From Octopus vulgaris (lineage: Eukaryota), in assembly GCA_951406725.2 (NCBI GenBank), contig OX597818.1:92690001-92754000 (forward strand): a stretch of DNA of 64,000 nt, written 5' to 3'. This document shows, one piece after another, positions 6,823 to 49,200 of the stretch. How positions within the stretch are numbered: the first letter of the stretch is position 1; every line of letters begins with the position of its first letter. The position numbers and the translations under genes are program-made. The notes beneath the pieces were generated by a model. The model was not told the DNA's origin, searched no databases, and was given only the letters and a program-made list of their open reading frames with translations.

Positions 6823-7460
6823 CAGGCACGGGAGTGGCTCTGTGGTAAGAAGTGGCAAGCTGGCAGAAACCTTAGCACGCCAGGCGAAATGCTTTGTGGT
6901 ATTTCATCCGTCGCTGCATTCTGAGTTCAAATTCCGCCGAGGTCGACTTTGCCTTTCATCCTTTTGGGGTCGATAAATTAAGTACCAGTTACGCACTGGG
7001 GTTGATGTAATCGACTTAATCTCTTTGTCTGTCCTTGTTTGTCCCCTCTATGTTTAGCCCCTTGTGGGCAATAAAGAAATAAGAAGCTTGCTTCCCAACC
7101 ACATGGTTCCAGGTTCAGTCCCACTGCGCAGCACCTTGGTCAAGTGTCTTTTACTATAGCCTTGGGCTGACAAAAGCCTTGTGAGTGGATTTAGTAGACA
7201 GAAACTGAAAGAAGCATGTCATGTGTGTGTGTGTGTGTGTGTATTTGTGTTGTCCCCCCACACACACACCATCGCTTGACAACCAATGTTAGTCTGTTTA
7301 CATACCCATAACTTAACGGTTTAGCAAAAGAGAGCAATGGAATAAGTAGTAGGCTTACAAAAAATAAGTCCTGGGGTTGATTTGTTCAACTAAAGGCAGT
7401 GCTCTAGCATGGGCACAGCCAAATGACTGAAACAAGTAAAAGAATAAAAGAATAAAAGAA
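6823..7460 (+). mobile_element. SINE family A interrupted by a SINE family B copy (about 6851-7083)
   Basis: The family A head gagtggctctgtggtaagaag resumes at about 7083 (aagaagcttgcttcccaaccac); the family B body lies between. Confidence 0.85.
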
Positions 7461-8329: not shown

Positions 8330-8720
8330 TTACTCACTTTACTTGTTTCAGTCATTTGACTGTGGCCATGCTGGAGAACCACCTTTAGTCAAGGAAATCA
8401 ACCCCAAGACTTATTCTTTGTAAGCCTAGTACTTATTCTATCGGTCTGTTTTGCTGAACCACTAAGTTACGGGTATGTAAACACACCAGCATCGGTTGTC
8501 AAGCGATGTTGGGAGGACAAACACAGACGCACAAACATATACACACACATACATATATATACATATATACGACAGGCTTCTTTCAGTTTCCGTCTACCAA
8601 ATCTACTCACAAGACTTTGGTTGGCCCGAAGCTATAGTAGAAGACACTTGCCCAAGGTACCACACAGTGGGACTAAACTCAGAACCATGTGGTTTGTAAG
8701 CAAGCTACTTACAACACAGA
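8330..8720 (-). mobile_element. tRNA-derived SINE family A (about 400 bp, internal CA/TA microsatellite, gtaaaaga-repeat tail)
   Basis: Most abundant repeat. Other copies at about 13885-14163, 26244-26680, 28193-28725, 28930-29337, 29943-30330, 30652-31075, 34745-35070, 36150-36520, 37630-38020, 39590-39975, 44503-44862, 46710-47010, 58060-58735 and 60943-61165. Confidence 0.9.
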
Positions 8721-9165: not shown

Positions 9166-9414
9166 ATACATTAATCCATTCTTGGAGATTCTCTCATTTA
9201 TTCCATTTGTTAACATGCTTCAAACTCATTGTTTTAATCGAATTTGTTATTCTCTTTGCATGAACTAGCTTTACAGATAACGATTCTTCTAACTGTTAAC
9301 CTCATATACCATCATTTATTTTTTTATCTTTTACTTGTTCCACTCATTGGACTGCAGCCACTCTAGGGCACTGCTTTGAAAGGTTAGGTTGAACAAATCA
9401 ACCCCAGTATTTAT

Positions 9415-9584
9415 ACAGCTCTATATTTAAGAGATGAGGAATTATGTACATTATTTACATTCGATGGATATTTGTCCTCATCTTGTTTGTTGTTAACACG
9501 TTTCAGCTGATATACCTTCCGGCCTTCTTCAGGTGTCTTGGGGAAATTTCGAACTTGGGTTCTCATTCTTAAGGTATTCTTCGA

Positions 9585-9618
<34 letters not shown>

Positions 9619-9780
9619 GTTCAGGTCACTACTTGGAATCAAACTTGGAATCTTGGGGTTGGTAGCCTGCACTCTTAACCACTATGCCATATGCCCATAA
9701 TAATAATAACATCGCCATATGCCCATAATAATAATAACATCGAGGAATACCTTAGGAATGAGAATCCAGGTTCGAAATTT
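9415..9780 (-). mobile_element. Non-autonomous Penelope-derived element: tRNA-like head, (AAT)n and hammerhead-like motif, with an inverted partial duplication
   Basis: Collinear with 45460-45670, which abuts a GIY-YIG ORF. Head at 9635-9696, hammerhead-like motif at 9495-9537. 9544-9600 is repeated inverted at about 9726-9780. Confidence 0.75.
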
Positions 9781-15450: not shown

Positions 15451-15924
15451 AATCTTATATGTTTTACCTATATGTACAAAACTGTACATGTGAATAAATA
15501 ATATTCTTTCCTACTCTAGGCACAAGGTCCGAATTTTTGGGGGAGGGACCCAGTCAATTAGTTCGATCCCAGTACGCAACTGGTACTTAATTTATCGACC
15601 CTGAAAGGATGAAAGGCAAAGTCGACCTCAGCGGAATTTGAACTCAGAACATAAAGACAAACGAAATACCACTAAGCATTTTGCCCAACATGCTAACGTT
15701 TCTGTCAGCTCACCTCCTTAATAATATTGAAATTATAAATAACATCAAAATTATTATGTGAATAAAGGATATCAAAATTATTTTCCAATCTCCTGCTTTC
15801 ATATATACAAACATGAGGAGATGTTAAAAAGTTCCTGGCTTTAAGGGTATTGCGAAAGGCTGACTGGAGGCCCATCCTTCCAAGTTCTTTTACAGGACTT
15901 AGAAAACCATATATATATATATGG

Positions 15925-23398: not shown

Positions 23399-23481
23399 TA
23401 GCACAAGTGGGTTTCGAACCCACGCGGACAATTGTCCATTGGAACTTAAATCCAACGCCTTAACCACTCGGCCATCATGCT
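23399..23481 (-). tRNA. tRNA-Leu(TAA), possibly degenerate
   Basis: AGCATGA-TGGCCGAGTGGTTAAGGCG-TTGGA-TTTAAGT-TCCAA, long variable arm, GTGGG-TTCGAAA-CCCAC-TTGTGCT-A. 83 nt. TTTT Pol III terminator 6 nt downstream (23389-23392). Confidence 0.88.
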
Positions 23482-24449: not shown

Positions 24450-26406
24450 GAGTCGTTAACAGGGAGAATAGCTTGAATAATAGAGCAGAGAACCAGACAG
24501 GCAAAACTGAGTGTGGTAGAAACTCTGATGGGAAAGGAGACTTCTAAAGAAGCTGCTGATTTAGTCAGGCATTCAGTAGGCTGGGTATCAGAAACTCCAA
24601 CTTAAATGCAAGTACAACTTGCAGCATAGCAATGACAGCAAGTATGTGGCAGAACAAGAGACTTGCTGCATTTCATCATGACACATCCATCAACTATGAA
24701 GTGGATTCTACAATTCTGATAGGTGGCATGTGTGCATCTATAAACACTGTAGAGTAAAAAAGTGAGATGGTAAATCTCCTGGGTTGTGTTGCACGAGTGA
24801 CAAAGTGCTTTCCAGACAACTCACTGAACCACCTTAACTACAGAAGTCAACTTTTGTTTGTTCTTTCTCGAGCCATGCCTGGTTCATAAGGGCCAATTTC
24901 CTTGGCATATAGGTTTCCCACCTGGACAGGACGCCGGTCTGTCGCAGGTGAGCTGCAAGATGCAGGAGGAAAGAGTAAGAGAAAGTTGTGGCAAAAGAGT
25001 CAGCAGAAGTTCGGCATTACCTTCTGCCGGAGCCACACGGAGCTTAGGTGTTTCGCTCATAAACACACACATCACCCAGTTTGAGATTCGAAGCCACGAT
25101 CCCTCAACCACGAGTCCGCTGCTCTAACCACTAGGCCATGTACCTCCACAGAAGTCAACTTACATAGCCTCAATAGAGGCTTCCAGTATTTCTTGGCAAA
25201 CATGTAAAGTTACATCACCTGCTTTCAGATTACCTCTTTCTTTACTACCCACAAGGGGTAGTAAACACAGAGGGGACAAACAAGAACAGACAAATAGATT
25301 AAGTCGATTATATCGACCCCAGTGCATAACTGGTACTTATTCAATTGACCCCGAAAAGATGAAAGGCAAAGTCGACCTCGGCAGAATTTGAACTCAGAAC
25401 GTAAATACAGACGGAATACCTATTTTTTTACTACCCACAAGGGGCTAAACACAGAGGGGACAAACAAGGACAGACAAATGAATTAAGTCGATTACAACGA
25501 CCCCAGTGCGTAACTGGTACTTAATTTATTGACCCCGAAAGGATGAAAGGCAAAGTTGACCTCGGTGGAATTTGAACTCAGAACGTAGTGGCAGACGAAA
25601 TACTGCTAAGCATTTCACTCGGCGTGCTAACGTTTCTGCCAGCTCGCCTGCTTTTAGATTACCACAAAGATGAGTGCCAACTTTTAGGGTTCAGACAGTT
25701 TTACCATTTTACTGATTCTGTTTCGCTCTTGTCTAATGAATACCTAAAGTTTCTTTAGATTTATTTCATGGGTGATGAGCAACTGCAGTAGGTACAGAAG
25801 TGCCACAGAAATATTCCAGCAGTATAAGTAGAAATTGTCTTCAGCCTTCAGGAAATACTCCATTCTCATATTAATTATATCTTTTTACCTGTTATTGGTT
25901 TCAGTCATTAGACTACAGCCATAGTGGGGCATTGCTTTGAAGGAAATATTAAACAGATTGACCCTAGTGCTTATTTTTTAAAGTCTGGTATTAATTCTAT
26001 CAGTCTTGCTAGCCAACACGAGTTGGGGGACAAACACAAGCAAAAAGGCGCATACGTGCACACACACAAAATGGGTTCCTACCAAATTCACTCACAGAGC
26101 ATACGGATATACAGTTAGAGGAGGTCAGTTTGCAGAGGTTTTAGTTCAAATAGGAAACAGTAAATTAGCAATAACAACGAAACCTAGAGAAGAGATATCA
26201 CAATACCGAAAAATCATCAGCACATTTCAAAGAAATGGTATTGAGCGCAGGAGTGGCTGTGTGGTAAGTAGCTTGCTTACCAACCACATGGTACCGGGTT
26301 CAGTCCCACTGTGTGGCATCTTGAGCAAGTGTCTTCTACTATAGCCTAGGGCTGACCAAAGCCTTGTGAGTGGATTTGGTAGACGGAAACTGAAAGAAGC
26401 CTGTCG

Positions 26407-26471
<65 letters not shown>

Positions 26472-27285
26472 ATGTGTGTTTGCATGTCTGTGTTTGTCCC
26501 CCCAACATCGCTTGACAACTGATGCTGGTGTGTTTATGTCCCTGTAACTTAGCGGTTCGGCAAAAGAGACTGATAGAATAAGTACTAGGCTTTCAAAGAA
26601 TAAGTCCTGGGGTCAATTTGCTCAACTAAAGGCGCTGCTCCAGCATGGCCACAGTCAAATGTCTGAAACAAGTAAGAGAGTATTTGTTGTAACCTCTCAT
26701 CAAATTATAGAGTATTAATGCCATGAAGCTTCAAAAGCCACCAAATTTATCCAGCTGGCATTATAGTTGGTCTTAACAATACTGTGAACTATCAAACAGT
26801 TTCTCAGTTCTCTTCAGTAGATTGGTGTTTCAATCTCATATTCTACAGCTGAAAGTAGGAGTACCTGTTATATTACAATGAATATTTGGATTCTCCAAAA
26901 TTTTGTAATGGTACAAGACTAGCTAATAAAAAATCTCATGTCTCAAGTGACTGAAGCCACCATTATAACATACTGAGCTGAGTTGCTTTTAATCTTTGCA
27001 TTCCAATCATCCTACCAGATCAGTTTAAGTGTCTTCAATGCCTCTAGTTTCTTTTGAGACAATCATTTTCTATTATTATTATTAAGTTTCTGTCACAGTC
27101 CCTCAAGGGTGATGAAGTTGAACTGACTAGTCCATGTTTCTCTCATTGTCAATTCTGTGATGCAGACTCATATTTGAATATTTTGATGCTCTTTTCATCA
27201 GAGCACCAAAAAAAACTTAATAAGAGTCTTTGCTTATTAAAACATTCTAAAACATTTCTGTTAGAATTGCTCTGTTTCATGTAAT
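24450..27285 (+). mobile_element. Internally deleted autonomous-type Helitron fossil (N-terminal region and PIF1 helicase C-terminus) with nested SINEs
   Basis: KHCRVKK*DGKSPGLCCTSDKVL..LTEPP; FLANM*SYITCFQITS; PTFRVQ...KFL*IYFMGD; LQLKVGVPVIL...PKFCNGTRL...QSLK...PCFSHCQF. Confidence 0.88.
25235..25646 (-). mobile_element. Dimeric SINE family B inserted in the Helitron (central domain gcctttcatcctttcggggtcgataaattaagtacc, Meta/MESC-like)
   Basis: TSD cctgctttYagattacc at 25218-25234 and 25647-25663. Monomers at 15505-15720, 33185-33420, 38058-38285, 38747-38975 (TSD gtatgagagcagc) and 58390-58625. Confidence 0.85.
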
Positions 27286-45439: not shown

Positions 45440-46200
45440 AAATACATAGATTCAAGGAATGAGATTTACATTCGACGGATATTTGTCCTCATCTTGTTCG
45501 TTGTTAACACAATGTTTCGGCTGATATACCCTCCAGCCTTCTTCAGGTATCTTGAGGAAATTTCAAACCTGGGTTCTCATTCCTAAGGTATTTTTCGATG
45601 TTATTATTGGAATCGAACTTGGAATCTTGGGGTTAGTAGCCTGCACTCTTAACCACTATGCCATATGCCCGTGGGCAATTATGGAGTGAATTTTTAGGGC
45701 TTATAAATCTAATATTTTTCCTATCCTTCCTTAATACCGGTTCTCATATGCTGCTCATATCTGCATTTGGTCTGCTTAGAAGGTTATTGTGTCCTAGCAT
45801 ATGTGCTGCTTCTTTTAGTTTTTGCATTTTCCAGTGGTGTCCTCTGTCTATTATTTTAACTTCATCCCGCAGGGGGATGTGGTCTCTATTTTTCCATACA
45901 TGATCAGTTATACCTAATTTATCAATATCTCCTCATGTCACAGCTTTGCGATGTTCGTCTACCCTTATTTTGAGGGGGCAGCTTGTTTCGCCTTTGTATA
46001 ACCTACCACAGCTGCATGGGATGGAGTACATACAGTCTTTGATCATATTCTCTTCTATTGGTGGTTTTACTCGCAGGAGATATTTGCAAAGTGTTGTATT
46101 ACTCTTGAATACTGTCCTGATGTCATATGGGCCACATATCTCTTGTATCTTTTTGGAGAGGCCTTTCACATAGGGTAGATAGACTGTGGACAGTTTTTTG
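45440..46200 (-). mobile_element. Penelope-like element 3' portion: GIY-YIG ORF remnant, tRNA-like head and hammerhead-bearing terminal repeat
   Basis: LPYVKGLSKKIQ...MYSIPCSCGRLYKGETSCPLKIRVDEH...LKEAAHM. Head at 45609-45670, hammerhead at 45506-45551. Confidence 0.9.
45506..45551 (-). ncRNA. Minimal hammerhead ribozyme motif, slightly decayed
   Basis: gatac-CTGAAGA-a-GGCTG-gagggtatat-CAGCC-GAAAC-ATT-gtgtt. Stems I and II can form; stem III is probably decayed from AACGTT. Confidence 0.7.
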
Positions 46201-49200
46201 GCCTTAAAGAAATGTTCACTTCTCAGCCATGTGGCTTAAAGTTCAATTCCACTTTGCTGCAATTTGGGTAAATGTTTTTTACTCTAGCCCCGGGGCATTA
46301 TATCTGACTAAGAAATGTAGGGAGAAAGAATGATGGGATAAAGCTCAACTTCTGGCTGTATCTATAACATGTATTCAAAGAACAAATGAAGGAACTGCCT
46401 AAGTGTTTGCTTTGACAACTAGAAATAGGTGTGTTCAATCCTACTGAGGTTGACATATTTTCAGAGACATTCTTCTCATGACCATCCTATGTTTTCAGAA
46501 TTGGGTTATCTCAGATTACACTGTCAGTGTGTCCTTTCCTATTTTTTAAAGATTGTATGGTGTGGTTCACAAGATTTGGCTCATATCTCTACCAGATCAA
46601 GAGGCTATCTAGTGTGAAACTTAGTAAAATTAATACCAGTAATATACTAGTATAGATTCAGCTGATAAAACTCCTTAAAAGGAAATTATATTTTGTAATT
46701 CTAAATTCTTGATTTTTGGGTTCAATCTCACTATGTAGCACCTTGGGCAAGTGGATTTGGCTGACAGAAATGGAAAGAACCTCATCACACACACATACAT
46801 GTCAATATGTATGTATATATATGTGTGTTTGTATTGTGTTTGTCAACCAGTGTTGGTTTATTTCTGTCCCTGCAGCTTAGCAGTTTGGCAAAATAGACCA
46901 ATAGAATAAGTACCAAACTTCAAAAATAAGCACTGGGGTTGACTAAAACCACTTTAAAGTGGTGCATCAGCATGGCCACAATTCAATGACTGAAACAAGT
47001 AAAAGATTCAAGTGTGAGAGCTAGGGTATTGACATAAAGAAGTTCCGTTGGACAGCCAATTTTATATCCATGTTTTATAGCTTGGAAAACTACAATAAAC
47101 AGGAGGGTGCTAAGAACTTATCTTATATTTTGCTGATGCCAGTTTATGTACATTACAAGCAAAATTGTCATAAGCAATTATCTTCATTTAATTATGAAAA
47201 TTTGTTTTGGATTTGGTTCCAGAGTTAGCTACTATAGTCCCCAGCTGACCAAAGCCTTGTGAGTGGATTTGGTTGATGGAACCTAAAAAGTTTATCTTGT
47301 GTCTTTGAGTTTCATTGTCTCTGGTTTCTTCTCACCCCTAGCAGATAAATCTTATGTCTTTTATCTAAGTTTCATAATGACCAGCAGTTACAGAGCACGG
47401 TACCTGGTCAAAGCCTTCTCTAGAAAAATGAATGAATACCAGGTACAGAGGTTCATTTTTACCTAAAGTCTCCTGGTTGTTGTCTTGCCTGGAAGTGGAC
47501 ATCACTGCTGCCCAGTCTTGGTACAATCTTGAAGTACATTTCATCTAATTCTATTCCTGATCATTTGAACTATAACTGTCTGTTACTTCCATAATGCAGT
47601 TCATCAATATGATGCTTCTCTATTTGGTTTTATTCTGGTGTAACTGTTTGTCATGGTAACAGTTTATGATGATATTGTAGTACCACATCGATTATGTGTA
47701 AGAGTACTTTGCCAGATATTTTTGGCATCTCAGCAACTACACCCAACAGTTTGGTTGCTTTCCTTGTTATTATATCCTTAGTCATATCCTCTCCTTGTAA
47801 ATAGTGTGTGTGTGTGTGTGTGTGTGTGTGTATTGACCACTCTTAATCTTGCCAACTGAGAAGAATGCATCGAAGCCAAAACACGCCACATATTTTACCA
47901 AATATATGTCAACTTCAGTAACTGGACCCTCTGCTGAATCTGTTTGGGATAGTTCATCTTCCTACACATTCTTTTTCTTTAGTATCCTCTCAAATTAACA
48001 CTTCTAACATTATTTTTTCTTAGGTCACAATGAAGACAAGTGCAACACTGTTATTTTGTATACACTTTTCCCCAACATCAGCTTTGATACACTTTGAGTC
48101 AACTTTGATACACTCTTTTAATCAGCAAACCTCTTACTTTCACTTTATTCCTTTATGTCTAACTTATCTGGCAGCTGCTTCAAGTTGTCCCTCACTGGCT
48201 GCTTTTTCCTGGCCTGTCCCTAGCTTTTATGGCTGTACCTATTGAACCATTCCACCATCATGTGTGTTGGGCATGGAACGAAAAAAACCTATTTCTATAT
48301 TGATCTTTACAACCATTTCAAAAATTCAGGGATTATCTGAAGAAATGTATATTATGCAAATGGATGTGCATGCGGATGGAATAATTCACATCTTTCTTCT
48401 GTTGGCCTGCTCACTTAGTCAGCAGGGTGGCGTCATTTGAAGGCTAAAACAATGTGAAGTGCATTGTGACAAGTGATGTGTAGCAACATCTGATAGCCTG
48501 GTTGGTCACAGTGATATATCATGTCATATATATGATATAACTTTTTCATGATGTATTTATATATAGTATGTATGTATTTAGTCATTTTTACACACATGTA
48601 TGGAGTGGGGAATGGCAACAAGATGCTTTATAGTATTGAGTTACATGCCCTTACATTTCTGTATGCATGTCCTACCAATACCAGCTTTGCGTTTTCATCC
48701 CACTGGGCTGGGTGGCAGTGTGAGGCAAATAAAATACTGGTTGTTGATACCATTAGCTTTGCAGTCTCTCTGAAAATTTGTGTATTTGCCAATATTTGAA
48801 ACCATCATTTATACACACACACACACACACATCACACACAGTAATCAGGTACATATAGGATGTTGGCATATATCTAACTGATGTTATACATGAAATGGCT
48901 TAGGTATGTAGCAGAGAACACAAATGATTGGGTATAGGATTAAATACCTTGTGCTATTATATTGCATGCCTTTATACTGAGCAGAAATGTTGCTAGAGTA
49001 CTCTTAGCTATATACCTATCTGATATAAAAAATATATACTTGAGTAAATAGAATTAATTAATGAAAGAATTAGCTAATCCTTTCTTTTAAAATATATGGC
49101 ACTCTGCCAATATAAGAAATGTGTTCCATGTATAATTGTATGTACACAGTGTGTGTATATAAAATATAAAACCTTGTATGGTAAACAGTAAAAGTGTAGC

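Follow-up and report, generated by a model that had tools for sequence, protein, structure and literature searches.

Does a protein-coding Penelope-like element (PLE) start its own transcription at a tRNA-derived promoter? This question is raised by a locus of Octopus vulgaris in a 64,000-nt stretch of contig OX597818.1, the whole of which was analysed and is called the window here. Pol III heads are taken as a mark of non-coding parasites, and a Pol III start signal of its own would be unusual for a protein-coding transposon; to our knowledge, promoters have been mapped for very few PLEs. The first-pass annotation of this DNA had read on the minus strand, in this order, a GIY-YIG remnant, an A- and B-box-like head, an (AAT)n tract and a CTGAAGA-stem II-GAAAC motif, and our own reading of the window bears this order out (Table 1).

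Table 1. Features of the window copy and of the second, ORF-less copy (window positions)
Feature	Position	Strand	Remarks
5'-truncated Penelope/Poseidon-type copy	46204-45464	-	GIY-YIG remnant, tRNA-like head, (AAT)n, minimal type I hammerhead
3' remnant of PLE ORF (end of RT-EN linker and GIY-YIG endonuclease)	45701..46204	-	5' truncation at ~46204
Family stop codon TAA of the ORF	45703-45701	-	
Spacer, ORF stop to head	45671..45700	-	family length 29 nt; pairing possible between its final bases and the opening bases of the head
tRNA-derived head	45608..45670	-	75 nt in the family; last 12 nt missing in the window copy
A box of the head	45663-45653	-	
B box of the head	45618-45609	-	
(AAT)n tract	about 45608-45601	-	short in the window copy
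ATG	45578..45580	-	opens the ORF frame where the repeat precedes the body (pLTR-body junction)
Minimal type I hammerhead motif	45506..45551	-	palindromic helix III broken in the window copy
Hammerhead core CTGAAGA	45546-45540	-	followed by one extra A
Hammerhead stem II GGCTG/CAGCC, then GAAAC	45518-45514 (GAAAC)	-	
Hammerhead stem I GATAC/GTGTT	45551-45547 with 45510-45506	-	
Predicted cleavage site	after 45511	-	+70 from the ATG, within the ORF start
3' end of the copy	45464..45505	-	at the nearer of the family's two end points, +110 to +130 from the ATG
Second window copy, ORF-less	9414..9696	-	begins at head +1; hammerhead module and tail present
Inverted 5'-truncated partner of the second copy	9740-9780		

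The window copy itself is dead. Its ORF remnant is interrupted by two premature stops and, near its end, by a frameshift, and has no Pfam match of its own; it aligns with 38% identity over 130 aa (E 1e-25) to the portion of P0079 that bears the PF01541 GIY-YIG domain. The palindrome of helix III reads GAAACATT in place of the family's GAAACGTT, so that the window copy departs in this feature from the minimal PLE hammerhead, and the optional tail of ~35 nt is absent. A search of the window with a hammerhead-core pattern gave a single match, and none of 100 shuffles contains one. ARAGORN and Rfam called neither a tRNA in the head nor a hammerhead, in the window copy as in a near-majority copy. 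In the second GIY-YIG motif, YKGET replaces the usual YIGET (46000-45984, minus strand), a variant shared by the family and its 60-70% relatives (P0003, P0005, P0020). A decayed SINE-like copy (46210-46304) abuts the 5' end of the element, and the second window copy (region 9414-9780) also has a short duplicated head start.

The 2.8-Gb assembly was searched for relatives of this copy. When loci were picked by the ORF DNA alone, all 30 (the window copy and 29 others) ran on into the head, three of them with deletions within it, which rules out a one-off SINE insertion in the window copy. Among loci selected by protein, the head lies behind the ORF in 22 of 25, with deletions there in two and an earlier end in one. 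The first-pass annotation had allowed that most ORF-linked copies might lack the head; they carry it. No head-less sister family was found among the 55 loci checked from two protein searches, all of which belonged to the tRNA-headed family, and a third protein search led largely to the same places. One copy, L311/L378 (G000 C13 ~16.30 Mb), has a body only 82% identical to the family majority behind which the same head stands, and possibly represents an older subfamily.

Longer copies give a unit of ~2.6 kb with a single ORF, in which an RT (RVT_1 match in copy L044) is followed by a C-terminal GIY-YIG domain (window remnant aligned to P0079), the arrangement of EN+ PLEs; the family's own EN gave no Pfam match. 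Junctions of pseudo-LTR (pLTR) and body, inverted 5'-truncated partners and an optional tail of 30-40 nt are likewise those of a PLE. No cysteine cluster was seen by eye in the RT-EN linker, where a zinc-finger-like motif marks Neptune and Nematis in the available text of PMC8557442; from the sequence, and without a tree, we infer Penelope/Poseidon as the clade name of the element. Where a repeat precedes the body, a frame opens at an ATG 20 nt past (AAT)n (window 45580) and, over 616 majority codons, meets no stop on its way across the hammerhead and the tail into the body, so that the ORF reads from the junction ATG via the hammerhead into RT and GIY-YIG. The order in the family is thus ORF stop, spacer, head, (AAT)n, ATG, hammerhead and two 3' end points, and since the ATG lies between head and hammerhead, the head occupies the place of the pLTR promoter.

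Exact motifs for the head start, the head end and the 3' end occur 2521, 4243 and 11,666 times in the genome, with no hits for the reversed controls. A sample of 66 copies includes 35 with an exact 3'-end motif, from which we estimate roughly 22,000 arms, inverted partners included. Copies diverge from the family majority by ~5% outside CpG and by 22-30% at CpG, and given the former value the family looks inactive. The distance from head to module ranges from ~0 to >600 nt. In L108 (~60-1450, element strand), a coding-looking fragment of another retroelement, ~1.2 kb long, sits inside (AAT)n, with the head on one side and the hammerhead module on the other; breaks at (AAT)n recur in other copies, and the tract may be an insertion target.

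As to its origin, a comparison with 35 different tRNA genes drawn from 30 loci of this genome placed the head closest to tRNA-Arg(TCG), with 49 matches over 73 nt and a score of 64 against a mean of 34 and a maximum of 55 in 500 shuffles; few isotypes were covered by this comparison, and the source tRNA is accordingly tentative. The A box is matched in 167 of 197 heads, a count biased by the pattern selection, and the B box GTTCRANNC in 117 of the 197, its losses being mostly CpG decay. A and B boxes are kept while the stems are lost, and the head has no tRNA fold.

We consider it probable that this is a Penelope/Poseidon-type retrotransposon whose pLTR is opened by a tRNA-derived head, which on sequence grounds would be the likely transcription start and most simply an internal Pol III promoter. 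RNA would start at the head of the upstream pLTR, a likely start point, and run into the body. The RT of the element would begin internally at two tail positions, by analogy with anole PAc in vitro, and copying back to the RNA 5' end would leave thousands of SINE-like copies of 250-350 nt, whereas longer RNAs that reach the next junction would give ORF-linked copies such as the window copy.

The 3' ends are in line with such a route. They are bimodal in 208 arms, with 100 at +110-130 and 89 at +145-165 from the ATG (189/208 together), and only two arms extend past +170. The RT of PAc initiates internally, at two sites on either side of the tail; it requires template as far as +172 but no hammerhead cleavage (Frangieh et al., PMC11167929, as far as the available text goes), and the two 3' end points of the element match these two start sites and the tail. 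The copies map both RT start sites as well as the likely RNA start, and give genomic support to internal RT initiation, which until now was shown in one in vitro system.

Short copies of head and hammerhead without the ORF are in the majority, in keeping with the short RNAs that the first-pass annotation had envisaged. Among the best 30 loci for the head alone, 26 lack ORF-side sequence and 29 have the hammerhead module behind the head; in position-ordered samples from one contig, a few duplicates included, 73 of 90 copies are ORF-less and 17 extend at least 40 nt ORF-ward (three of them near-identical). Anchoring at the 3' end gave 74 arms from the initial 7 Mb of a single contig: not one extends to the ORF, 33 get as far as the head, 20 break off at or within (AAT)n and 21 within the module. 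The 5' ends of 73 arms found with an inner-head pattern fall at -28 to +8 in 55 cases, at +11 to +33 in 11 and in the ORF in seven; the 55 divide into 43 at -6 to +8 and 12 at -28 to -10, the latter being mostly alignments to snap-back sequence as judged by eye. The short copies also bear the marks of Penelope, namely the inverted partner and the two 3' ends.

Like tRNA-derived SINEs, these copies carry a tRNA-derived A/B-box head at the 5' end. They might then reflect split labour, in which the Pol III head, a start point common to this reading and ours, yields only short template RNAs and the protein comes from a separate Pol II transcript; in a variant suggested by the first-pass annotation, short master copies would possibly be a Penelope-dependent SINE or retrozyme. 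We regard this as unlikely, although the short copies dominate, Schistosoma Sm-alpha has such a layout (PMC6765202, available text), and L177, described below, and all ORF-linked copies need an RNA that crosses the head. A non-autonomous lineage distinct from its partner is not what the copies look like: at unbiased positions no diagnostic site parts short from long copies (~200 nt compared, limited power), and both linked variants (head 64 with core N7) occur in ORF-linked copies (8 and 10) as well as in short ones (20 and 59). Apparent short-lineage sites at head 65-73 were traced to selection bias, the copies having been chosen on the deletion of the window copy. Moreover, with only 2/208 arms past +170 and the need of PAc for template to +172 (PMC11167929, available text), short copies would lack the protein-binding part. 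Tandem head-to-tail arrays of hammerhead units were absent from the loci read, and the two close same-strand pairs inspected are not arrays of short units.

The shared variants and the missing separating site lead us to assume common masters for short and long copies; the short ones probably come from the same master loci. Since they end at the two Penelope RT-start positions and share these variants, they need the protein of the element, and they are best read as by-products, not as a separate SINE. The idea of the first-pass annotation that short RNAs arise independently of the ORF does not hold up well on either count, as the start codon of the ORF lies inside the module with a frame that runs through the hammerhead into the body, and as the short copies share ends and variants with the protein-coding element.

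A second alternative would see in the head a passenger left by an old SINE, a fragment of which became fixed in the 3' UTR; its hairpin would stop or snap back the RT on long Pol II RNAs and so mimic a start. Folding predicts a hairpin TGCCC-AC-GGGCA across the head start for RNA and cDNA alike, snap-backs derived from it are present in many short copies, perfect ones centred on a 2-nt spacer being common, and head plus (AAT)n resembles an inserted SINE. Against this, many short copies stop at ~+1 with no snap-back, and inverted arms on long templates pass the site. In 35 insertions with a long main arm and an inverted partner, 20 partners stop in the module, five inside the head and one at +1, and nine pass ORF-ward; among inverted arms that reach the head start, nine pass and one stops in these long insertions, versus eight passes and 55 stops in the general sample (Fisher p ~2e-6; counting near-identical pairs once gives 3e-6, and treating the +13 case as a stop gives 1e-5). 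With 9/10 passing, the head start is no block on long templates, and the pile-up of 5' ends there most likely marks an RNA 5' end. A free SINE with this head on another body was not found among 15 copies with a weak hammerhead that were inspected, of which 10 run from the head to (AAT)n, one has the module deleted and four break in or just after the head into unrelated DNA. We thus hold a passenger head to be quite improbable. The spacer was considered as a decayed snap-back of the head, and its similarity is not above that of shuffles (P 0.15-0.23). It counts against our own reading that none of nine pLTR-body junction copies starts at head +1; near-full-length junction copies begin between (AAT)n and +132, and one (L177) includes the upstream ORF end.

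RNase P cuts at tRNA +1, and a cut at this position would be its product. That RNA starts at the head via Pol II, as the TATA-less promoter in the pLTR of D. virilis Penelope (PMC2377424, available text) might suggest, or that a longer transcript is cut there by a tRNA-processing nuclease, is nevertheless most improbable, given a head with no tRNA fold, boxes retained and stems lost, and many ends at -6, not +1.

Returning to a Pol III start at the head, we advance more tentatively, as a doubtful possibility, that Pol III makes the full 2.6-kb RT-endonuclease RNA, that TTTT has been purged from its sense strand, and that the same transcript seeds the roughly twenty thousand SINE-like ribozyme arms. 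The majority sense strand (2410 nt) has no TTTT run against 29 AAAA runs. The whole-ORF majority keeps a frameshift near codon 663, which limits a synonymous test to 663 codons; these hold no TTTT, with a synonymous-shuffle mean of 2.85 (P 0.025). Six single copies hold 0-8 runs, and 45 of 46 control ORFs of at least 400 aa, which include three RT ORFs from the third protein search (L386-L388), have at least two. The one TTTT-free control is L389, the closest relative (50% identity), which lacks the head; its 3' region is T-rich and it does have a hammerhead. The absence of TTTT may thus be a trait of the lineage, which weakens the Pol III argument; as a sequence signal it is suggestive of Pol III transcription. 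It counts against such an mRNA that it would be uncapped and ~2.6 kb long, and Kojima, writing on LTR elements, holds that autonomous elements need Pol II (PMC10886601, available text). RNA-seq reads (three 2026 runs of a same-label species and one contig set) are equal in both orientations, with no pile-up at start or end and little depth over the 5' body, and so speak neither for nor against Pol III. Over the ORF end (L004:1370-1590, runs X21-X23), 30-50% of reads carry linked differences, suggesting that a single divergent copy contributes strongly to the RNA, perhaps as part of a host transcript. Should the mRNA be a Pol III product, one could ask by experiment how an uncapped 2.6-kb RNA is translated, and a SINE and its enzyme would be combined in a single unit.

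Among known systems, anole PAc and D. virilis Penelope share with the element an RT with C-terminal GIY-YIG, an ORF start within the hammerhead region (PMC11167929, PMC2377424), two 3' end points with an optional tail, inverted 5'-truncated partners and a promoter expected in the pLTR. The pLTR of the octopus element differs in opening with a tRNA-derived A/B-box head, where D. virilis Penelope instead has a LINE-like internal promoter (PMC2377424). Sm-alpha resembles it as a short repeat in which a type I hammerhead comes after a Pol III-type promoter (PMC6765202, PMC8490949), but is non-coding and often tandem, whereas here the module is terminal repeat and ORF start of a coding PLE with dispersed or head-to-head copies. 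TRIMp3 elements (Cassandra, Helenus, Ajax) have a small-RNA-derived Pol III promoter in the terminal repeat, for which an origin by SINE insertion was proposed; they are non-autonomous LTR elements of 0.3-1.3 kb (PMC10886601), defined by true LTRs, PBS and PPT, in contrast to a PLE with its own RT and endonuclease and PLE ends. As far as the available texts of these sources go, Sm-alpha and TRIMp3, both non-coding, are the nearest analogues. Metazoan non-LTR retrozymes are short hammerhead repeats too, with a proposed origin from PLE pLTRs, but are tandem and form circles (PMC7229834; bioRxiv 10.64898/2026.07.22.740005); the accessible text of the preprint mentions neither tRNA nor Pol III. 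A published description of a tRNA-headed PLE was not found in a literature search short on subscription papers, and a Repbase or Dfam entry is possible. If our reading is right, a coding PLE that starts at a tRNA-derived head would show how an autonomous element can lead directly to ribozyme repeats of the SINE-like and Sm-alpha-like kind.

Minimal hammerheads of metazoan PLEs are of type I, with an extra nucleotide after A9 (between 9 and 10.1), G10.1-C11.1, a palindromic 15.2-16.2 and a short stem I (Cervera and de la Pena, PMC4209133). The family majority has CUGANGA, the extra nucleotide, G10.1-C11.1, GAAA, the palindromic 15.2-16.2 and NUH, and by sequence the motif would not differ from those in the available description. 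Of 164 copies, 48 have kept the two halves of the core undamaged, and folding recovers stems I and II only. Since such minimal hammerheads are weak alone and dimer- or protein-dependent (PMC4209133, PMC11167929, available texts), that of the element is predicted by analogy to need dimerisation or a protein partner for cleavage. The 74 3'-anchored arms show no clustering of 5' ends at the predicted cleavage site, and the hammerhead is probably not needed for making the short copies. Ribozyme-cut templates were considered for the five of 21 module ends at +71 to +82 and rejected, four being internal deletions or alignment stops. A similar hammerhead layout occurs in 18 of 79 related metagenome loci, and no A/B-box pair stands between ORF and hammerhead in the 12 related metagenome loci with a hammerhead behind the ORF.

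In the window, several abundant SINE-like families of ~170-240 nt are scattered (e.g. 6845-7085, 26245-26473, 8338-8569 and 15552-15719), and ARAGORN calls one tRNA-Leu(taa) at 23399-23481 (minus strand) that may be a gene or a SINE head. Elsewhere in the genome and outside the tRNA-headed family, L386, L387 and L388 have stop-free RT-related ORFs of 657-806 aa, and L386 carries a hammerhead-like motif on the same strand.
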